From: Syntrophales bacterium
Lineage (GTDB): Bacteria > Desulfobacterota > Syntrophia > Syntrophales > UBA2210
DNA length: 64,000 nt
Direction: 5' to 3'
NCBI GenBank assembly: GCA_963662405.2
Contig: CAXXKT010000001.1
Coordinates: 1,536,001 to 1,600,000 of the forward strand
A program made the position numbers and the translations under genes. Below are positions 2,646 through 41,250 of the stretch, in pieces. The notes beneath the pieces are model-generated. The model ran no database searches and was not told where the DNA came from. It worked only from the letters and a program-made list of their open reading frames with translations. Positions within the stretch are counted from its first letter, which is position 1. Each line of letters begins with the position of its first letter.

Positions 2646-4508
2646 TCATGCTCCCGGAAAAGAAACGCTTATGTTGAAGTGAAGCGCATCTTCGGTATGG
2701 AAGGGTTTTACGGTCTCTTTATCTATCGTGACCTCTTCGAAGATCTGCGACCCCTTGAGGGCAAGGACATATCTTGCCAGAGACGCCTCAAGGGAATCGG
2801 GAGGACCTGTGACGACGCCGCTGATCATCATGCCCGCCGACGCCGGTGCGGCCTTCTTCTCGGCATTCCTCCCCATGGTAGCCGTGACCGTTGAGAGGCA
2901 TATGTCCGGGGGACTCAATCTCGACAGCTCTCCGATGACTGCTGCTCCCCAATACCGCCGGTGGAACTGTTTGAGCGTGAGGCGGTTTTTATCGATTTGT
3001 GAGACCATCGTGTAAGCGCTTTCCTGAACCGTTTTTATATCGGTTTTCATCTGGTGGTCGAGCTGGGTCAGGACGGCTTCTTTCCGTTCAATGACGATTC
3101 CCATCCAGAAAAAGAGTCCGATCAGAATCAGTGCTGCCACGGCGAATGCTGACGCGATCGACCGGTTTACACGGCTGGTTTGTGCAATCTTTTCCTTGTC
3201 TCTGTGGGTGCATATGAGATTCAATGTACGAGACATGCTCGACAGCGCCAGGCCCAGCGCGGAAGTCAGCGAAGCCCTTTGAGAGACGGATGTATGTTCC
3301 GTTATCGCATTCAGCGGATTATCCGGGCCCATGGGATCCAGTACCGTGTTATCCACCCTGAGTTGGCCGCCGATATATTCGGTAACGGGCCGATACACCC
3401 CGCCATCGGAGAATACATAAATGTAATCGATCCCCTCATTACCCAGAATAACGGTATAGTGCTCAAGGGTTCTCTCCACCTGCCTCACGAGTCGTTCCAA
3501 GGCAGGCTGAATCATCTCGAAGATCTTCTCCTTGCTGAGACCGAAACGGTCGGTTTTTCCATGGGGCGGAGGGGAATCAACCCCCAGGCTGAAAACCAGA
3601 TCCCTTGCATCTTCGAGAGTTATGATGGTTTGTGGCTGTTCGTGATCGATCTCTGTATCGAGAATGTCATCCTGTTCTTTCGGAAGAATCGTGGCTGTAT
3701 GCTCTTCCAAGAGAGAATCAGCCATACTGTCGATTCCCGCTCGTATGCCGCGCGTCATCGTCAGGTTCCCCAGAGAGAAGACGTCGATGCGTGAAGAATC
3801 ATCCCCTATGAAAAGCGTGGCCGCCCGAGCGGGGACAGGGATCCAATCGGCCCTGAACAGGTTTTGCAAGGCGAAGGGGGCAGCGGTCAGGCCGGTCAAC
3901 GGAAAGCCGATTCCTTCAAAGAGTTTTTCAATCTCTTCAACTTCGCGTTTCGGAGCGGTACAGACGACTACCGACAGCTTGGTGACCCCTTCTTCGACCA
4001 CTTCACCCTGGACTTCAAAATCAAGGATCATGTTTGCTTTATCGAAAGCCGAGTTTTTTTTAACGGTCCAGTAGACGGCGTTTTCGAGCTGTTTCTTCGC
4101 CACTTTCGGAATCCGGATGTTTTCCACGTCTACCGTATCAGACCGGATCAGGCTCCAGATATTGAGGCCCCTCCCGGAACCGCAGAACTCTTCAAGGGTT
4201 GCCTTCATAAAAGAGGCATGCTCGGCGGTTCCCCGCACTATCCCCCTTGCAACGGAGACCCGTTTATAACTCAGCAACTCCGACTGGCCGTTCGAGAGCT
4301 GTCTTACCTTGACTAGCCTCAATTCGTCATCCGTGATATCCACTCCCACGGACAGGGCTTTCTTTGCGAAACCACCCCGCAGGTTTTCCTTCCTTGCGGT
4401 TTCGGATGGGGAAACCTTTGGTGTGCCGGATATCACCTCCCGCGTCTCCTTATTGCGGATCAGGGTGAGCAACCGTTCAGTTGAAGAAATGTCTTTGTGG
4501 GAAGGCAC
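2646..4508 (-). CDS. PilM-PilN fusion protein
   Basis: Actin-like PilM part (VGVDITDD, LFIGDDSSRI, ALGLAL) followed by RTLNL, a TM helix, coiled coil and PilN domain; GTG start at 4508 after GGAG. Confidence 0.8.
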   Translation of the reverse strand: MPSHKDISSTERLLTLIRNKETREVISGTPKVSPSETARKENLRGGFAKKALSVGVDITDDELRLVKVRQLSNGQSELLSYKRVSVARGIVRGTAEHASFMKATLEEFCGSGRGLNIWSLIRSDTVDVENIRIPKVAKKQLENAVYWTVKKNSAFDKANMILDFEVQGEVVEEGVTKLSVVVCTAPKREVEEIEKLFEGIGFPLTGLTAAPFALQNLFRADWIPVPARAATLFIGDDSSRIDVFSLGNLTMTRGIRAGIDSMADSLLEEHTATILPKEQDDILDTEIDHEQPQTIITLEDARDLVFSLGVDSPPPHGKTDRFGLSKEKIFEMIQPALERLVRQVERTLEHYTVILGNEGIDYIYVFSDGGVYRPVTEYIGGQLRVDNTVLDPMGPDNPLNAITEHTSVSQRASLTSALGLALSSMSRTLNLICTHRDKEKIAQTSRVNRSIASAFAVAALILIGLFFWMGIVIERKEAVLTQLDHQMKTDIKTVQESAYTMVSQIDKNRLTLKQFHRRYWGAAVIGELSRLSPPDICLSTVTATMGRNAEKKAAPASAGMMISGVVTGPPDSLEASLARYVLALKGSQIFEEVTIDKETVKPFHTEDALHFNISVSFPGA

Positions 4509-34082: not shown

Positions 34083-34532
34083 ATGAAGAAGATGATGGAG
34101 ACAGTGATCGACATCGCCATCGACCGGGAGATAGCGGCCGGTGACTTTTACCGGGACCTTGCCGGGAAAGTTGAGGATCGGGCCGTCAGGGACACCCTGA
34201 CCTTTCTTGCGGGGGAGGAACAGAACCACCGGGATTTCCTGATGGGATACCGTGACGGACGTTACGGGTCCGATGCGCTGTGCCTGACCGATACCGTCGA
34301 TTACAAGATAGCCGAGTACCTGGGAGAACCCGACACCAGCGGGGAGATGAAAAGCGCGGATGTGTATCTCGTCGCGACTCATCGGGAGTTCCAGTTATAC
34401 CTCTTCTACCGGGCGCTGGCCGACCTGCATCCGGACGGCGAGATCAGGGAGATGCTCCTTCGGATTGCCGGCGAGGAGATGCGGCACAAGGAGAAGGTGG
34501 GATACCTGTGCAGCAATGTGGCCTTTCCGTAG
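34083..34532 (+). CDS. Ferritin-like/rubrerythrin-domain protein
   Basis: E..FY..LA..EEQNH and E..FY..EEMRH repeats. Confidence 0.8.
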   Translation: MKKMMETVIDIAIDREIAAGDFYRDLAGKVEDRAVRDTLTFLAGEEQNHRDFLMGYRDGRYGSDALCLTDTVDYKIAEYLGEPDTSGEMKSADVYLVATHREFQLYLFYRALADLHPDGEIREMLLRIAGEEMRHKEKVGYLCSNVAFP

Positions 34533-34566
34533 ACGGCGGGAGGCTGAGAGACAAAAGGAGGGATCC

Positions 34567-34941
34567 ATGTTTCATGACCGGTTGTCACGGCAGGCGTGTG
34601 CGGTATTCTTTCTTCTCTTATTGTTGACCCTTGCCCTGTGGCCGACCATGGCCCGCGGCCACGGGCCGAAGGATGTCGTTCTGGCCTACGATCCAGGGTC
34701 CCGGACCCTGCGCGTCACTATTACCCATACCGTATCGAACCCTCAAAAACACTACGTTAAAACAGTCTCCATCGCCAGAAACGGAGAACTCGTCACAAAA
34801 GAAAAGTACACGGACCAACCGGTCCCCTCGTCCTTCTCATACACGTACACTGTCGAAGCAGAACCGGGAGATAGACTCGAGGTCACGGCCGACTGCAACT
34901 ATTTCGGATCGAAAACGGGAGAGTTCACTCTCGGCAGGTAA
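34567..34941 (+). CDS. Secreted superoxide-reductase-like (Ig-fold) metal-binding protein
   Basis: Signal peptide, then H-G-P, H.VSNPQKHYV and CNYFG, resembling the SOR H..H..CNxHG layout. Confidence 0.5.
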   Translation: MFHDRLSRQACAVFFLLLLLTLALWPTMARGHGPKDVVLAYDPGSRTLRVTITHTVSNPQKHYVKTVSIARNGELVTKEKYTDQPVPSSFSYTYTVEAEPGDRLEVTADCNYFGSKTGEFTLGR

Positions 34942-34978
34942 CAAGGTCATTGGAGGAAACGCGCACGGGAGGAGTCCT

Positions 34979-35365
34979 ATGATCTTCATCCATGCAGGGT
35001 GCATGTCTGCGGGTCTTCTGTTGCTGAGTGTCGGGGTTTCCGGAGCCATGATGATGCGAAAAAAGGAATGGTGGCTTCGCGTTCATCGGCGGTGCGGCAC
35101 CGCGGGAGTGGTCGGTGTCCTCCTCGGATTGGCGGTTGCCCTGTACATGGTTTCCGGGCAGACAGGACGGCATTGTGCCGTCCCGCACGCCTGGCTGGGG
35201 ATCATCACGGTTCTTGCCGTGGTGTGCACGTACCTGATCGGAGTGGCGCAGCTCAAGATGAGGGTACCCCGCATGCGACCGCTGCACCGGTGGGTCGGTC
35301 GTGTGACGCTCGCGCTGCTGGTCATCAATGTCCTGTCGGGACTGTCTCTGGTCGGGGTCATGTAG
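34979..35365 (+). CDS. Four-TM cytochrome b561-like membrane protein
   Basis: Four TM helices each with a His (IH, RVHR, PHAW, LHRW). Confidence 0.6.
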   Translation: MIFIHAGCMSAGLLLLSVGVSGAMMMRKKEWWLRVHRRCGTAGVVGVLLGLAVALYMVSGQTGRHCAVPHAWLGIITVLAVVCTYLIGVAQLKMRVPRMRPLHRWVGRVTLALLVINVLSGLSLVGVM

Positions 35366-35457
35366 TTGGGGATCACGGGGAAAAGACTCTTTCAAGGTGG
35401 TGCGGTAAAACGGCAGGAAACCAGGGTTAAAATCGTCACGCAGAGGGAGGGTAAGGT

Positions 35458-35763
35458 ATGAATATCTATCATTTCTGTCTGGGAATCATGGTCTTTCCAC
35501 CGGCCTGTGCCTTCGCCGATGTCGGCGATGGCGGGTGTTGGTCCGGGTGGGGCCGTATGGGACCCGGGTTTGGAGGAATGTTTATGTGGATACTGCTTCT
35601 TGTCGCCGTCGGTCTGATCGCCTACTTTCTGGTGCGGGCGTCAAAAGAGGGGAACATCAGGGGCCCGCATGAGACGCCCCTCGATCTTCTCAAGAAACGA
35701 TACGCCCGGGGTGAGATCACCAAGGAGCAGTACGAAGAGATAAAGCAGGACCTGGAGGAGTGA
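35458..35763 (+). CDS. SHOCT-domain small membrane protein
   Basis: GMG/GGM-rich segment, TM, TPLDLLKKRYARGEITKEQYEE. Confidence 0.85.
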   Translation: MNIYHFCLGIMVFPPACAFADVGDGGCWSGWGRMGPGFGGMFMWILLLVAVGLIAYFLVRASKEGNIRGPHETPLDLLKKRYARGEITKEQYEEIKQDLEE

Positions 35764-35867
35764 CGGTGTAAGCCGTTTCCTGCCGGGGCCCATGGCGCGT
35801 ATCAGTCCCGATGGTTGTTGTTGCGATCGTTTCCCGCAGAAGGAAACGGAAAATGGAGGTGTATCGC

Positions 35868-36089
35868 ATGGCTGAGATACGAGTGGACGTACGGGGAGAG
35901 ACCTGTCCGGTGCCCCTCGTGGAGACCCGCAAGGCGCTCAGGAAGGCCGTGGCGGGGGATACCCTGGAGATCACAGGAACGCATCCCGCTTCCAAGAAGG
36001 AGATACCCATGGCCCTGCAGGCGTTGGGTTTGGACGGGGTCGGGGTGCAGGAAGAGGGGGATGTGTGGACCATCAGGGTTCACGTTTGA
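35868..36089 (+). CDS. tusA: TusA/SirA family sulfur carrier
   Basis: VDVRGETCPVP; RBS GGAGG. Confidence 0.88.
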   Translation: MAEIRVDVRGETCPVPLVETRKALRKAVAGDTLEITGTHPASKKEIPMALQALGLDGVGVQEEGDVWTIRVHV

Positions 36090-36101
36090 AGGAGGGTACC
36101 T

Positions 36102-36521
36102 ATGGCAGATAAGGCAACCATCGTTGTTCACAGCGGGGATATGGACAAGGTGTACAGTGCCCTCATTATTGCCACCGGTGCTTTGTCCATGGGGATGGAG
36201 GCATCCCTCTACTTTACCTTCTGGGGACTCGAACGGCTCATCACGGGGAAACTGGAAGGGGGACGCCTCTCACGGATGCACCTCATGGGGATCGGGAAGT
36301 GGATGGTGCAAAGGCGGATGAAGGCGGCAAACGTGGCCTCCCTGGAACGGCTCCTTCAGGACTTCAAGGAACTGGGGGGGAAGATCATCGCCTGCGAAAT
36401 GACGATGCAGATCATGGGGATCAGACGGGAGGCCCTTCGCCGGGACCTGATCGACGAGTACGGTGCCGTGGGGACCTACGTGCAGGAGGCACGGGAGTCG
36501 AAGATCACCCTCTTCATATAA
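36102..36521 (+). CDS. DsrE2-type sulfurtransferase
   Basis: HSGDMDK, FTFWGL, IIACEMTM, terminal LFI. Confidence 0.85.
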   Translation: MADKATIVVHSGDMDKVYSALIIATGALSMGMEASLYFTFWGLERLITGKLEGGRLSRMHLMGIGKWMVQRRMKAANVASLERLLQDFKELGGKIIACEMTMQIMGIRREALRRDLIDEYGAVGTYVQEARESKITLFI

Positions 36522-36533
36522 GGAGACGTTGCC

Positions 36534-37700
36534 ATGATTGAGAAGACCGTCTATCTCGACAATGCCGCGGCAACCCGGATGGACGAGCGGGTCCTGGAGG
36601 CCATGATACCGTACTTCTTCGAGACCTACCCGGTCGCCACGTCGGAGTTCGGCTATTCCCTCGGTATCGAGGCCCGGGAGGCACTGGAGAGGGCCCGGGA
36701 GGAGATCGCACACCGCCTCGGTGCCGACAGTGAGGAGTTCATCTTTACTTCGGGGAGCACCGAATCGAGTAACCTGGCCCTCAAGGGGGTGGCCCGCGCC
36801 CTCGGCGATAAGAAGGGGAGACATTTGATCATTTCCGCCATCGAGGACTTTCCCGTTCTTTACAGTGCCAGGGCCCTCGAGCGGCAGGGTTTCTCCGTCA
36901 CCTCCCTGGGAGTCGACCACGAGGGAGGTGTCGATCCCGAGAGGGTCCGGGATGCGATCACGGACGAGACTATCCTGGTCTCGATCCAGCACGCGAACCA
37001 GGAGATCGGGACGACCCAGGATATAAGAACCATCGGCCGCATCTGCCGCGAAAGAGGAGTCCTGTTCCACACCGACGCCACACACACCTTCACACGGGTA
37101 CCTCTCGATACCACCCAGGTGCCGGTGGACCTGATAACCCTCTCTCCCCATACGATCCACGGTCCGAAGGGGATCGGCGGCTTGTATATCCGGAAAGGAA
37201 CGCCCATCGCAAAATGGATGGACGGGGGGTTCCAGGAGTTCAATCTCAGGGCCGGTATGGAGAATATCCCGGGAGCTGTCGGTTTCGCGAAGGCGGTCGA
37301 TCTGGTTGTCCCCCGGGAGAACGAACAGATCGAGGCGATGCGGAATCACCTTATCGATCGCGTATCGGCCGAGGTACCGGACACGACCTTGAACGGACAC
37401 CGATCGAAGAGGACCCCGCAGAACGCGAACATCACCTTCCACTTCGTGGAGGGAGAATCAATTACCCTCCACCTCGACATGCGCGGCTTTGCCGTCAGCA
37501 CGGGTTCCGCCTGTTTCAGCCGGTCGCTGGAGGCGAGCCACGTGATCTTGGGGATCGGCGGGGATCATGAACGGGCGCACGGGTCGATTCGCCTCACCGC
37601 CGGTCGGTACAACACCATGGAAGAGATGGACTCGGTCGTAGACACGATCACCGAGGTGGTGGGAGAACTGCGGAAGATCAGCCCTTTGACCAGACAGTAA
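36534..37700 (+). CDS. IscS/NifS-like protein lacking the PLP-binding lysine
   Basis: YLDNAA, FTSGSTES, NQEIGT and STGSAC retained; SPHTIHGPKG in place of S.HK..GPKG. Confidence 0.9.
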   Translation: MIEKTVYLDNAAATRMDERVLEAMIPYFFETYPVATSEFGYSLGIEAREALERAREEIAHRLGADSEEFIFTSGSTESSNLALKGVARALGDKKGRHLIISAIEDFPVLYSARALERQGFSVTSLGVDHEGGVDPERVRDAITDETILVSIQHANQEIGTTQDIRTIGRICRERGVLFHTDATHTFTRVPLDTTQVPVDLITLSPHTIHGPKGIGGLYIRKGTPIAKWMDGGFQEFNLRAGMENIPGAVGFAKAVDLVVPRENEQIEAMRNHLIDRVSAEVPDTTLNGHRSKRTPQNANITFHFVEGESITLHLDMRGFAVSTGSACFSRSLEASHVILGIGGDHERAHGSIRLTAGRYNTMEEMDSVVDTITEVVGELRKISPLTRQ

Positions 37701-37712
37701 GGAGGATCAACC

Positions 37713-38348
37713 ATGACTTTTCCATACAGCGACACGGTGTTGGAACACTTTCGTCACCCCCGCAACGTGGGGAAACTCGAAAACCCCGACGGAAATGCCT
37801 TGGAAGGGAGTCCGGCCTGTGGGGACATGGTGGGGGTCCAGATACAGGTCGATCCCGACACGAAGCAAATTACGGATATCAAATTCGAATCCTACGGCTG
37901 TGCCTCCAACATAGCAACGGGTTCCATCATTACCGAACTGGCAAAGGGGAAAACACTCGACGAGGCCAAGAAAATCACGTGGAAGGAGGCGTCGGAGGCC
38001 CTGGGGGGATTGCCCCCGATCAAGGCCCACTGCTCGGTCCTCGCCGTCGAGGGACTCCGCTCGGCGATCCGGAACTATGAGGAACGTCACGGCCTGATTA
38101 CGGATCAAGAACCCACTACCGTGGAGGGTGTCCGCAGGCGCCTCCAGAAGGTGATGAATCCCCTCTCGGGGCTCGATCTGGTTCGAACGGAACTGGTCAA
38201 AGAGATCTCGGTCGATCAGGGGATCGTCCGTGTGACGGTGGATATCCCCGCCGGCCATCAGTTCGCCCCTAATATCAGAGACGAGATCGTGGAGAAGATA
38301 CAGCCCCTCTGGGACGTGGAACGGGTGGAGGTCCTCTTCACGGAGTAA
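37713..38348 (+). CDS. iscU: IscU/NifU-N scaffold fused to a C-terminal DUF59 (SufT/MIP18)-like domain
   Basis: HFRHPRNVG, GSPACGD, YGCAS, LPPIKAHCS; C-terminal LQKVMNP..LDLV..LVKEI..VRVTV. Confidence 0.85.
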   Translation: MTFPYSDTVLEHFRHPRNVGKLENPDGNALEGSPACGDMVGVQIQVDPDTKQITDIKFESYGCASNIATGSIITELAKGKTLDEAKKITWKEASEALGGLPPIKAHCSVLAVEGLRSAIRNYEERHGLITDQEPTTVEGVRRRLQKVMNPLSGLDLVRTELVKEISVDQGIVRVTVDIPAGHQFAPNIRDEIVEKIQPLWDVERVEVLFTE

Positions 38349-38550
38349 CTGGGAACCGCACAAGCAGAACTACTTGCGACCCATCTCGTGGCGCAGGGTG
38401 ATCTCCGAGGGTGCGCCTGTACGTTGTTCCATTATATCCCGCCAAAGGATCCGCAATCAACCGCATTATTGAGATGATATCTGGGGGCTCGAATGAATAA
38501 AAATTCAAGTTTGGGGGGGTGGTGCCGATATATGAGGAAGGACAGGTACT

Positions 38551-41250
38551 ATGATTCTGAATGGAGATACAAAGACGGGACAACTTGAGAAAGACCGGCT
38601 GACCCCTCCGTCTTCCCCCGGTCACTCGGATACGTCTATTCAAAACATAGCCGTTCTTTTTACCGATATTATCGGATCAACCCAATTCTTCCAATCCCAC
38701 GGCAATCTTGCCGGGCGCACCATGCTCCAACAGCATGAAAGTCTTGTCTCAACGACCATTGCACGGTTCGGAGGAACGGTCGTTAAGAATCTGGGTGACT
38801 CTATTATGGCCTATTTCCTGAGTCCCCGGGAGGCGACGAAAACCGCCGTTCAGATACAAAAAGAGTTTCAGGATTATAATAAAGAGCACGGTGACGGTCA
38901 CAAGATCCACGTGAGGATCGGTATTCACTTCGATGAGGGAATTGTTGAGAACACAGACATATTCGGGAACGCAGTCAATATAGCGTCGAAGATTACCGAT
39001 CTTGCGGGGAGCAATGAGATCTGTATATCTGAGAACGTTTTCGCTCTGGCCAAAGCGCTCCCGTCCCTTACGTTTGAGCCGGTTAAAATCACGGATAACG
39101 ATAATGCCCGATTGGAATCGCTGGCCTATCGTGTCTGCTGGGAGAAGAGCGTTGGTTTTGCTCCTGCGCTGATGACGGTCCTCTATATGAAACCGTTCTC
39201 CCAAAAACGGGGGAGTGGCATCTTCGATCCACTCTGGAAGAGCTTAATCACGGCCAGGGCGCTTTTTTGGGAAGGACGGGTCCATAGCGAAACAATTTTG
39301 GAAGATCAGGCTGTTATCCTCACAACGAAAAACCTCTCGGTTGCCATGGATGTGGTCGCTGATGTGCTCACCTTTCTCAAAGAAAGCATAGGGGGGCAAT
39401 TTACCGTTCCGCTGCAGATCCTTGTTGACGCCGGCCCTCCTCAGATAATCGAAGGATTGATCCGTGAAGGGTTCAAACCTGAGTGGGATCATCTTCGGCC
39501 GGACACCATTTTCCTGACCACGGCCGCCCATTACCTTATAGCGGAGGAAAAGATTCATGTTGCCTCCATTACCCCCCCGGAACCGGGTACCCTTTATTCA
39601 TTCTATGCAATAGCACCCAACGACTACCAGCAGAACGGAAACGAGCTTCTTTTCCCGTATCAGGGTATGCTTTACAAGGGGGACCATGCCCCCTGTTTTT
39701 ACTGTGGCAGCAGAGATCACGCGATCAGCGACTGTCCGTCCAAACAACTGACGGTGGTCACCGATACCCTTGACCACTTGGGGTACCTCTCCTTTGAAGA
39801 GATCAGCGAAACCTTTCTCTCCTATCTCAAGAGTTCGGAAGAGGAAAAGGCCCGAACACTCCGATCTGATGAAGAAATGAACGGGCAGCCACCATCGGCC
39901 GGTCTTGGACTATACGAGCTTAATCAACTTTTCCAACTCCGCTTTCTGAGAAATATATGGGAGAGTGCGAGCAACGATTGGGATACGGTGGCACGGGCTC
40001 GGCAGAGGGGAGACGGCTCCGGGGATCTGATCTGGCTGGCGCAGGATTGTATCCGTGTCTCCAATCTCACAAAAGCGGAATCACTCCTGAGGAATTGCCT
40101 GGAAAAGTATCCTGATGACTACCGGACATATTGCGCACTGGCCTTTCTGAATATAGAGCAGGGAAAGTTTCCAAGGAGCGAACAGCACCTGAACAAGGCA
40201 CTCCGCTATACGCGAACCGTCCCTCAAAAGATCTACATCCTTTTTCTTCTTTCCCGATTACACAACCTCGCCGGTGATTTCGATGGTGCTCGGAGAAGGA
40301 CACGTGAAATAAGCATAATGCAACCCTACTGTCCCGAGGCGACCTACCAGGAAGTCGTTTTCAACTTCAGAGAGGGGCGCGAGGGCCCGGCGCTGAAACG
40401 GCTCATAAGCCTGATCCGGATGAACCGGGAATACTATGTCAAGACCCTGATCGATCCGGACCTGGCCCCTTACAGCCAGGTAACCCATCCTGTACTCAAA
40501 AATCTGTTTACGGAAATCAGGCAACAGGCACAAAGAAAGGCCTTTGAGGCCGGGAGGAAATTCACTTTCTTTGATCGGTTTTGGGTGAAAGGAGAAGAAG
40601 AGGACGCTCAAAAGATCAAAGCTTTCATGTCAAAGATGCAGTCCTTGGTGTCGACCGCCAGCTATTTCGGGTATTTGGATATTGCGGATTGCGCCGATTC
40701 TATAATCAGCATTTGTCGTCGGGCACAGATTCGTCGGAAGGAAAGGTTGATGGACAGCGTGCATGCCGTGCACAAGCGCATCGATTCCATCTTCGATTTC
40801 ACCGCGGATTATCGTCCCCAGCTTTCTTCCACGTCTCCCTATCGGCAACTGCAGGCTGTGCGATCACAGTTCGAGGAATTCGTGAGATCGGCGGCGTTAT
40901 ATGATCTGGCGCGATATAAGGAAATGTCCGAACAATGCCGGAAGATGCTCGGAGAACTGACTGAGATCGAAGTGAAGCTCCGTCAGCTGAGGACAATTCT
41001 GAATCTCAAGCGGTTCATTCTTGTTTTCACGAAAAATGCCATCTTCATCCTTTCCATCATCCTGTTTGCAGAGATTGTGATCCTCCCCACGATTGCCTAT
41101 TATCTGAATACATTTTTGCCGGACTTTGATTTGTTCACGGGGGGAGATCTCCGGGTCTACCACAAATACGCTCTTATCTTCGGGCTGTTGGGGGGTCTGG
41201 GGCTGACCTTTCTTAAATCCTTCAAGACCTTTTTCAAGGGCAAGGCCTGA
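38551..41250 (+). CDS. Class III adenylate/guanylate cyclase with CCHC zinc knuckle, TPRs, coiled coil and two C-terminal TM helices
   Basis: FTDIIGST, KNLGDSIMAYF, RIGIH, DIFGNAVNIASK; CFYCGSRDHAISDC. Confidence 0.85.
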   Translation: MILNGDTKTGQLEKDRLTPPSSPGHSDTSIQNIAVLFTDIIGSTQFFQSHGNLAGRTMLQQHESLVSTTIARFGGTVVKNLGDSIMAYFLSPREATKTAVQIQKEFQDYNKEHGDGHKIHVRIGIHFDEGIVENTDIFGNAVNIASKITDLAGSNEICISENVFALAKALPSLTFEPVKITDNDNARLESLAYRVCWEKSVGFAPALMTVLYMKPFSQKRGSGIFDPLWKSLITARALFWEGRVHSETILEDQAVILTTKNLSVAMDVVADVLTFLKESIGGQFTVPLQILVDAGPPQIIEGLIREGFKPEWDHLRPDTIFLTTAAHYLIAEEKIHVASITPPEPGTLYSFYAIAPNDYQQNGNELLFPYQGMLYKGDHAPCFYCGSRDHAISDCPSKQLTVVTDTLDHLGYLSFEEISETFLSYLKSSEEEKARTLRSDEEMNGQPPSAGLGLYELNQLFQLRFLRNIWESASNDWDTVARARQRGDGSGDLIWLAQDCIRVSNLTKAESLLRNCLEKYPDDYRTYCALAFLNIEQGKFPRSEQHLNKALRYTRTVPQKIYILFLLSRLHNLAGDFDGARRRTREISIMQPYCPEATYQEVVFNFREGREGPALKRLISLIRMNREYYVKTLIDPDLAPYSQVTHPVLKNLFTEIRQQAQRKAFEAGRKFTFFDRFWVKGEEEDAQKIKAFMSKMQSLVSTASYFGYLDIADCADSIISICRRAQIRRKERLMDSVHAVHKRIDSIFDFTADYRPQLSSTSPYRQLQAVRSQFEEFVRSAALYDLARYKEMSEQCRKMLGELTEIEVKLRQLRTILNLKRFILVFTKNAIFILSIILFAEIVILPTIAYYLNTFLPDFDLFTGGDLRVYHKYALIFGLLGGLGLTFLKSFKTFFKGKA

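Follow-up and report, generated by a model that had tools for sequence, protein, structure and literature searches.

A widespread cassette of two candidate sulfur carriers, a lysine-less IscS and an IscU-DUF59 protein in oxygen-avoiding bacteria and archaea

In Escherichia coli, IscS is an active pyridoxal phosphate (PLP) enzyme that passes sulfur to TusA and from there to TusBCD (DsrEFH homologues) for tRNA thiolation, and the genes of IscS, TusA and TusBCD are not known to form one operon with iscU. Archaeoglobus fulgidus has an inactive IscS, a Cys of which is a ligand of the IscU-bound cluster (PMC7585200; PMC13066941; here and below, statements that cite these two sources concern the portions of their text available to us). 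In Methanosarcina acetivorans, the isc1 cluster comprises MA0810 (SirA-like), MA0809 (DrsE superfamily), MA0808 (IscS1) and MA0807 (IscU1, 24.2 kDa), and in IscS1 the residues that bind PLP, the Lys among them, are absent, and it may work as A. fulgidus IscS does (Deere et al. 2020, PMC7585200); the same portion labels the neighbours of isc1 "genes of unknown function", puts forward no relay of sulfur and takes isc2 as the system to characterize. The MIS system (MisS-MisU; Garcia et al. 2022, as summarized in PMC13066941) is an IscS-like and IscU-like pair with a cysteine desulfurase, and the available part of the MIS section of that 2026 review mentions no Lys-less subgroup linked to TusA or DsrE. 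Sulfide, not cysteine, is the source of the sulfur of iron-sulfur (Fe-S) clusters in Methanococcus (as told in PMC7585200). How strict anaerobes supply this sulfur without a working cysteine desulfurase is the open question addressed here, through four genes of a Syntrophales bacterium (assembly GCA_963662405.2, contig CAXXKT010000001.1, positions 1,536,001 to 1,600,000; these 64,000 nucleotides are called the window). The genes encode a TusA-like protein, a DsrE-family protein, an IscS homologue without the Schiff-base lysine, here called IscS*, and an IscU with a C-terminal DUF59 domain. Our preferred, still tentative, reading is that this cassette is a minimal (IscS-IscU type, "MIS"-like) Fe-S module in which IscS* would form no persulfide from cysteine and the two carriers would deliver sulfane sulfur that does not come from cysteine.

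The reading starts from the active site of IscS*. Aligned with HMMER against solved structures including 4EB5 and 9WEP, Thr207 takes the position occupied by Asp199 in A. fulgidus IscS (4EB5) and by the Lys in active enzymes, and Met242, within RAGM, that of the Thr of RxGT. A preliminary description of this DNA, made from the sequence alone, had named these two substitutions together with Asp105, His184 (in DATH) and Cys327, and every residue proved correct. We compared IscS* with its 120 best homologues, which are 74–100% identical to it: Asp105, Cys327, Gln152 and Gln156 are present in all 120, His184 in 99% and Thr207 in 118 (the other two have one Pro and one Ile), while position 242 is occupied by Leu, Ile or Met. 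The close homologues are thus Lys-less and share the changes at the His and Gln positions, as the preliminary description had it. Relative to 129 Lys/His-type representatives, in which position 105 is always His and position 184 is Gln in 97%, the family has a set of fixed differences (Asn34 to Val, His105 to Asp, Met152 to Gln, Asn156 to Gln, Gln184 to His, Lys207 to Thr and a few others) and a two-residue insertion, Glu38-Phe39; Asn155, Asp181, His206, Arg353 and Cys327 are common to both groups. These family-specific differences therefore suggest a PLP pocket remodelled to a new conserved state, and the changes at the PLP site are fixed, coordinated and conserved rather than decaying.

The preliminary description had also argued that several coordinated substitutions speak against a sequencing error, which the counts for Thr207 and Asp105 uphold. 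Nothing apart from the missing catalytic residues speaks for a decaying pseudo-enzyme or an error at Thr207, and both are refuted by these counts and by Logan contigs from two runs of one sample, possibly the source, which cover all 2481 bases of the cassette with 0 differences; moreover, the reading frames are intact and identity across phyla is 69–88%. Near-identical pieces of cassette DNA are also present in two metagenome runs, both from one study of marine sediment.

The AF2 model of IscS* has an overall pLDDT of 94.6, with a mean of 67 for the loop block 321–330 that contains Cys327 and values above 90 otherwise, and Foldseek gives TM values of 0.93–0.95 to structures of NFS1, E. coli IscS, A. 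fulgidus IscS and NifS. IscS* accordingly has the class-V fold and the loop Cys of class I cysteine desulfurases and lacks their Schiff-base Lys, their PLP-contacting His, Gln and Thr and an equivalog score. What it has in full are the features of the A. fulgidus-type non-catalytic proteins, namely no Lys, a retained loop Cys and an adjacent IscU with Cys/Asp/Cys/Cys ligands.

The genes around iscS* form one real operon (table 1). All four are co-directional and lie head to tail with spacers of 12 nt throughout, and each has a GGAGG-type ribosome-binding site (RBS) 6–9 nt ahead of its ATG, which bears out the four tightly spaced genes, each with an RBS, of the preliminary description. A scan of positions 35300–38700 gave two promoter-like (1.1 expected) and five terminator-like (2.0 expected) matches, none of them sensibly placed for the operon, and no RNA run was among the listed public sequencing runs matching the stretch. 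The residues expected of sulfur and cluster handling are conserved: in the TusA-like protein, Cys13 lies within the CPxP motif, Cys13, Pro14 and Pro16 are invariant in our own alignment of homologues, and Cys13 is kept in 72 of 73 cassette homologues; the DsrE-family protein has a single conserved Cys, Cys98 (74/74 homologues); and IscU-DUF59, which carries an LPPIK motif, has the cluster ligands Cys36, Asp38, Cys63, His106 and Cys107, kept in 75–76 of 76 homologues. None of the four proteins reaches an NCBIfam equivalog cut-off. The TusA-like protein scores 29.1 bits with the TusA model (cut-off 78), IscS* 432.8 with NifS TIGR03402 (530.75) and 364.4 with IscS TIGR02006 (643.2), and IscU-DUF59 124.8 with IscU (192.4), the NifU cut-off likewise not being reached. 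The label DsrE2, given to the second gene at first, does not hold, since the NCBIfam DsrE2 model NF047629 gives 60.3 bits against a cut-off of 210, in a match split over two stretches; the protein is a PF13686 member of the DsrE family. A complex prediction for IscS* and TusA with the DsrE-family protein as partner, run without controls, gave a median of 0.29 against a mark of 0.32 and counts neither way.

Table 1. Genes, domain and active-site codons of the cassette, in window coordinates except where residues are given
Feature	Position	Strand	Remarks
tusA-like gene, 73 aa	35868..36089	+	PF01206 71.5 bits (cut-off 28.6); RBS GGAGG 35855-35859
DsrE-family gene, 139 aa, "DsrE2-like"	36102..36521	+	PF13686 (DrsE_2) 115.3 bits (cut-off 25); RBS GGAGGG 36091-36096
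iscS*, 388 aa, class-V fold	36534..37700	+	PF00266 (Aminotran_5) 219.6 bits; RBS AAGGAG 36520-36525
iscU with C-terminal DUF59, 211 aa	37713..38348	+	PF01592 (NifU_N) 141.5 bits; RBS AGGAGG 37700-37705
DUF59 / FeS_assembly_P domain of IscU-DUF59	residues 140-207		PF01883 51.8 bits (cut-off 23.5)
GAC = Asp105	36846-36848	+	PLP-stacking His position (ED vs EH)
CAC = His184	37083-37085	+	Gln position of DAxQ (DATH)
ACG = Thr207	37152-37154	+	Schiff-base Lys position
TGT = Cys327	37512-37514	+	mobile-loop Cys in STGSAC

The cassette is widespread. A genome scan returned at least 493 relatives, and the loci studied are the best 80, which come from Bacteria (Syntrophales, Dehalococcoidia, Anaerolineae, Thermodesulfovibrionales/Nitrospirota, Atribacterota, Actinomycetota, Aminicenantes and Thermotogae) and from Archaea (Methanofastidiosa, Methanohalophilus, Methanobacteriaceae, Methanomassiliicoccales and Thermococci). 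Across these 80 loci IscS* is 69–88% identical, the closest being those of Syntrophales metagenome-assembled genomes (MAGs). By tblastn, all four parts are present in 68 of the 80 loci, and 61 have the exact order and spacing of the window. When open reading frames (ORFs) from six frames were searched with profiles, using our own hidden Markov models for TusA and DsrE and single-sequence models for IscU, DUF59 and IscS, TusA, DsrE, IscU and DUF59 were all found in 67 of the 79 assessable Thr-type loci, and TusA and/or DsrE in 76 of them. No further neighbour gene was common to more than ten of the related loci. Within its own order, of which 121 genomes were sampled, IscS* occurs in 6 only (80–100% identity), other best matches reaching at most 52%. 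That the unit is patchy in occurrence yet highly identical from one domain to the other speaks for its horizontal spread, and the cassette fits what would be expected of a selected, horizontally moving unit.

Some variation in layout was also seen. In several Dehalococcoidia/Chloroflexota loci (L041, L046, L051, L053, L058 and L065), 0.8–1.6 kb separate iscS* from iscU-DUF59; the gene inserted in L046 (2216–2893) belongs to the Asp/Glu/hydantoin racemase family (52.5 bits). A search with the DsrE-family protein found no fused protein longer than 245 aa, and one with TusA found six longer proteins, none fused to DsrE, IscS or IscU, which is weak evidence either way in both cases. On single metagenome contigs, close relatives of the cassette TusA occur in fusions of 239 aa with an HD domain and of 354 aa with a hemerythrin domain, which may be gene-call run-ons.

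The gene set extends to the protein whose structure was solved. The A. fulgidus IscS2-IscU proteins (4EB5, 4EB7, 4HVK; D199K variant 4R5F) likewise combine a class-V fold, no Schiff-base Lys, a loop Cys and an adjacent iscU, and the precedent that the preliminary description drew from them is as stated in PMC7585200 and PMC13066941. One genome (G296) has, at locus L134, an IscS identical in 379 of 380 positions to 4EB5 chain A, and there a DsrE-family ORF (1135–1488; 57–67 bits with Pfam DsrE, depending on the start) lies 9 nt upstream of IscS on the same strand. This frame is open for 117 codons, and its first ATG, GTG or TTG leaves 94 aa, there being no normal start in the first ~23 codons; the N-terminus is therefore possibly shortened. 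Profile searches of ~5 kb upstream (L240) and of the 1.1 kb upstream within L134 found no TusA. The genome has a second, paralogous locus, L239, where TusA (81.2 bits), DsrE (77.5 bits), an Asp-type IscS 87% identical to that of L134, IscU (179.5 bits) and an extra DrsE_2 gene (44.1 bits) all lie on one strand. The content of the two loci places the published inactive A. fulgidus IscS-IscU system in the same kind of gene set.

Using a query protein that scores 431.6 bits to 4EB5, we examined this group further in 301 genomes that share the phylum of a Methanohalophilus genome; 30 loci were retained. Twenty-two of them are Asp-type (His105, Ala184, Asn206, Asp207), and in 21 of the 22 TusA and/or DsrE lies directly upstream in the same orientation, with both present in 12; in the Lys-type loci of this archaeal sample, TusA or DsrE was found in 0/7 assessable. 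That the clade of the crystallized A. fulgidus IscS is also linked to tusA and dsrE is new here. The two types nevertheless differ. IscS* and A. fulgidus IscS have a Foldseek TM of 0.93 and about 41–45% identity; the A. fulgidus type has Asp at the Lys site, keeps the stacking His and has Ala for Gln and Asn for His206 (NHAND), whereas IscS* reads VDHHT; its IscU has DUF59 in 0/22 loci, in contrast to that of the window, and its DsrE protein is 119–122 aa long against 139 aa. Literature searches for AF0564, AF0565, AF0186 and AF0185 found nothing relevant, though the primary A. fulgidus papers may mention the neighbours. At Asp-type locus L117, tusA is preceded by the gene of an FTR1-family iron permease (5–835).

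Compared through the gene descriptions of the paper rather than by sequence, M. acetivorans isc1 has the gene order and content of the window cassette, and its IscS1 has the same STGSACFS loop motif and its IscU1 is likewise enlarged (PMC7585200); the window copy is bacterial and isc1 archaeal. Methanosarcinales relatives (Methanohalophilus, L073 and L083) belong to the cassette set at 70% identity. In the literature found, only the M. acetivorans isc1 cluster is drawn, MA0807–MA0810 are treated in PMC7585200 alone, and nothing relevant joins TusA, DsrE/DsrE2, IscS/cysteine desulfurase, IscU or archaea. With MIS, the cassette shares an IscS-IscU pair without adjacent chaperones, ferredoxin or A-type carrier, but MIS is described with a cysteine desulfurase (PMC13066941) and IscS* has no Lys; a search for MisS/MisU with lysine found nothing relevant, though Garcia et al. 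2022 may mention neighbours.

Is the association with carriers peculiar to Lys-less proteins? The control was the set of 20 IscS loci ranking next within the order (46–51% identity), all with the canonical Lys, His and Gln: 11 of the 20 have a plain iscU, and tusA or dsrE was found in 0/20 by tblastn and in 0/16 assessable by profile search. Over all clades, 211 loci were scanned, of which 200 had a full-length IscS; 39 were dropped for short flanks, leaving 161 assessable. Carriers are linked in 104 of 111 Lys-less against 5 of 50 Lys-bearing loci, a table confounded by relatedness. Outside the Thr and Asp types, tusA follows iscU in 3 of 6 loci of a Gln-type clade (NHADQ), and 3/3 Leu-type loci are carrier-linked. 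All five Lys-bearing carrier-linked genes belong to a sister family found in the metagenome scan, which has Val34 and IscU-DUF59 and the order iscS - iscU-DUF59 - tusA - (dsrE). Its PLP site ranges from near-intact (VHQHK) through Gln-less (VHYHK, VHLHK, VHMHK) to Lys-less (VHLHL, VTWSL), a stepwise erosion with the cassette retained that would be expected if IscS catalysis were dispensable there. Hence the idea, put forward in the preliminary description, that Lys-less homologues keep company with tusA, dsrE and iscU-DUF59 stands as a co-occurrence (67/79 against 0/16 for Lys-bearing loci) and falls as an exclusive one, given the Lys-bearing sister cassette. One sister-family IscS fragment on a metagenome contig (L193) appears to have Ser at the loop Cys (..VHKTS), an uncertain observation because the partial gene lies at the contig end.

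The history of the lysine was followed in trees. FastTree with 148 representatives (three fragments dropped) places at least four changes of Lys state on well-supported branches. In an IQ-TREE analysis of 76 hand-chosen rows, support is 100 for the Thr clade, 97 for Thr plus sister and 98 for the Asp clade, and in the best tree the Thr and Asp clades stand apart. Independent losses of the Lys in the Thr-type and Asp-type lineages are thus suggested by the trees, not established, as forcing the two clades together costs 20.7 lnL units (log-likelihood; p-AU, from the approximately unbiased test, 0.28). Either the Lys was lost several times among carrier-linked lineages or a single old lineage exists that is Lys-poor and carrier-linked; under either history, the carriers and the predicted loss of the PLP site go together.

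These observations fit a mechanism in which no internal PLP aldimine could form on IscS*, its Schiff-base Lys having given way to Thr207 and the His and Gln that contact the ring to Asp105 and His184. IscS* would probably still bind IscU-DUF59 and, by analogy with the A. fulgidus IscS-IscU complex, Cys327 would act as a cluster ligand, a persulfide shuttle or both. TusA Cys13 and Cys98 of the DsrE-family protein would most likely carry sulfane sulfur not generated by IscS* catalysis and pass it to Cys327 or straight to IscU, and the DUF59 domain would help to hand on the finished cluster. A more far-reaching proposal makes the cassette a self-contained, mobile, cysteine-independent Fe-S system, with a relay from the DsrE Cys to the TusA Cys, Cys327 and IscU-DUF59, sulfur taken from sulfide, polysulfide or thiosulfate, the A. 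fulgidus pair as an eroded member and a rebuilt pocket. The residue set Val34, Asp105, Gln152, Gln156, Asp181, His184, His206 and Thr207 of the former PLP pocket is strictly conserved, and under this proposal the rebuilt pocket would bind something else, possibly the iron; we hold the proposal as a whole to be possible but doubtful.

Several points weigh against delivery of non-cysteine sulfur by the carriers. In E. coli, sulfur runs from IscS to TusA and TusBCD, that is, in the opposite direction. No enzyme that would load the carriers (rhodanese or sulfide oxidizer) is found among the cassette genes or among widely shared neighbours. Three Thr-type loci, L045 (Thermotogae) and L061 and L067 (Anaerolineae), have neither tusA nor dsrE nearby, and five Lys-bearing IscS genes share a comparable cassette with genes for IscU-DUF59 and for TusA, DsrE or both; linkage is therefore not dependent on loss of the Lys, and the carriers could accept sulfur from IscS. 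Once relatedness is allowed for, few evolutionary events carry the contrast between Lys-less and Lys-bearing loci: there are 4–6 independent contrasts with a sign-test median p of 0.5, an underpowered comparison, and a single origin of the Thr, sister and Asp-type clades is compatible with the data by the test above. The organism itself has two Lys-bearing genes from which cysteine-derived persulfide could be had. One (L002, G000:C1:8776-12861, ORF 1492-2634) is NifS/IscS-like and canonical, complete in its PLP residues and loop Cys, with no iscU beside it. The other (L001, G000:C1:1016941-1021041, ORFs 1441-2661 and 2658-3239) encodes a class-V aminotransferase (PF00266 314.8 bits) that overlaps by 4 nt the gene of a 193-aa TusA-DsrE fusion (YedF-like). 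Finally, expression of M. acetivorans IscS1 on its own gave insoluble protein (PMC7585200).

The TusA-DsrE protein of L001 would be a fused counterpart of the two cassette carriers beside an apparently active enzyme. The L002 gene is flanked on the opposite strand by nitroreductase-like and serine/threonine dehydratase-like genes, named from their translations only.

Much of this bears on the main rival account, in which the same complex works with the flow reversed: IscS* would be a non-catalytic adapter, Cys327 would be persulfidated in trans, for example by a NifS-like enzyme, and the carriers would export sulfur to thio-cofactor synthesis or tRNA thiolation while IscU takes a share. The E. 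coli relay is its precedent and is built from the same three families as the cassette (class-V IscS, TusA and DsrE-family; IscS* has a TM of 0.92–0.93 to the IscS of 3LVJ). The Lys-bearing sister-family members in their similar cassette agree with it, as do, in this genome, the canonical NifS-like gene without an IscU of its own and the class-V enzyme followed by the TusA-DsrE fusion, and a ThiI tRNA/thiamine sulfurtransferase gene adjoins tusA at one Asp-type locus (L132, 2929–4053). TusA is also named as a sulfur acceptor of IscS (PMC13066941). Yet no MnmA, TusE, MoaD or ThiS partner is conserved beside the cassette, and, if the carriers received their sulfur from IscS catalysis, it would be harder to see why the Lys was lost repeatedly and only where carriers are linked. 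The A. fulgidus-like query matches IscS* best in three archaeal genomes that carry the cassette. In one of these, a Methanofastidiosum MAG of unknown completeness (G122), IscS* is also the best PF00266 match (248 bits) and the only full-length one, the next being partial (120 bits), so that a donor desulfurase is not evident there. We therefore regard reversed flow as unlikely.

In the window's genome, the cassette is one of several predicted Fe-S assembly routes. Its IscU is the sole strong NifU_N match (142.6 against 74.3 bits for the next), and the genome also has a SufC-SufB pair (L091) and a locus (L090, G000:C2:429762-433118) where a 417-aa protein joins an Mrp/NBP35-type ATPase to a dinitrogenase FeMo-cofactor-binding domain and two genes come after it, first a divergent IscU-like one (72.9 bits), then a metallo-beta-lactamase-fold-like one identified from its translation only; L090 may be a further Fe-S maturation locus. 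With such systems at hand, IscS* and IscU-DUF59 could form a complex for carrying, storing or repairing clusters that needs no supply of sulfur, the carriers being only co-regulated, for example for sulfane-sulfur buffering. That A. fulgidus IscS only ligates the cluster, in the sources cited above, and that three Thr-type loci do without carriers would agree with such a role. It accounts poorly for an order kept with 12-nt spacers, for cassettes complete in 67 of 79 loci across two domains, for the recurrence of the linkage in the Asp-, Gln- and Leu-type clades and for carrier cysteines that hardly vary (72/73 and 74/74), and we consider it distinctly improbable.

The fused TusA-DsrE protein beside a class-V enzyme elsewhere in the genome also recalls YedF, which has the same TusA-like and DsrE-like domains in one chain, the cassette having two separate genes, and with it a role in selenium, other chalcogen or metal trafficking, with TusA and DsrE as a split YedF. 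The best NCBIfam matches of the TusA-like protein are indeed YedF models, but its scores of 39.8 and 29.4 bits are far under their cut-offs of 79 and 110. The cassette contains no selD, yedE or selenoprotein gene, and an IscU with all cluster ligands and a DUF59 domain points to Fe-S assembly. Such trafficking is the least credible of the roles weighed here, with very little chance of being right, and a module that builds Fe-S clusters on IscU with sulfur from the two carriers stays the reading we tentatively prefer.

The genes upstream of the cassette are lineage-local synteny and lie outside it. Positions 34083–35763 hold a rubrerythrin-like gene, a 193-aa ORF without Pfam match, a cytochrome b561/DUF4079-like membrane protein and a SHOCT-domain protein, and look-alikes of several of these recur 5' of the cassette in 3–8 related loci. 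Downstream, after a gap of 202 nt, an 899-aa protein is encoded on the + strand at 38551–41250; it has an N-terminal adenylate/guanylate cyclase domain and weak matches to TPR repeats, below the Pfam cut-offs, and its hydrophobic C-terminus may span the membrane.

The cassette thus belongs among the IscS-IscU systems whose IscS is inactive, a kind already known; it occurs widely, and its function is uncharacterized. What is added here is the tie to the A. fulgidus structure, the Lys-bearing sister cassettes and the negative controls. For the Lys-less IscS* subfamily, "cysteine desulfurase" is the wrong name in annotation. Two candidate sulfur carriers can now be named beside an inactive IscS in hundreds of bacterial and archaeal genomes, and the same candidates adjoin A. 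fulgidus-type proteins of solved structure, which reduces the question of the sulfur source to the reconstitution of four proteins. If the cysteine-independent proposal were true, it would answer where "dead-desulfurase" and desulfurase-free anaerobes obtain the sulfur of their Fe-S clusters.

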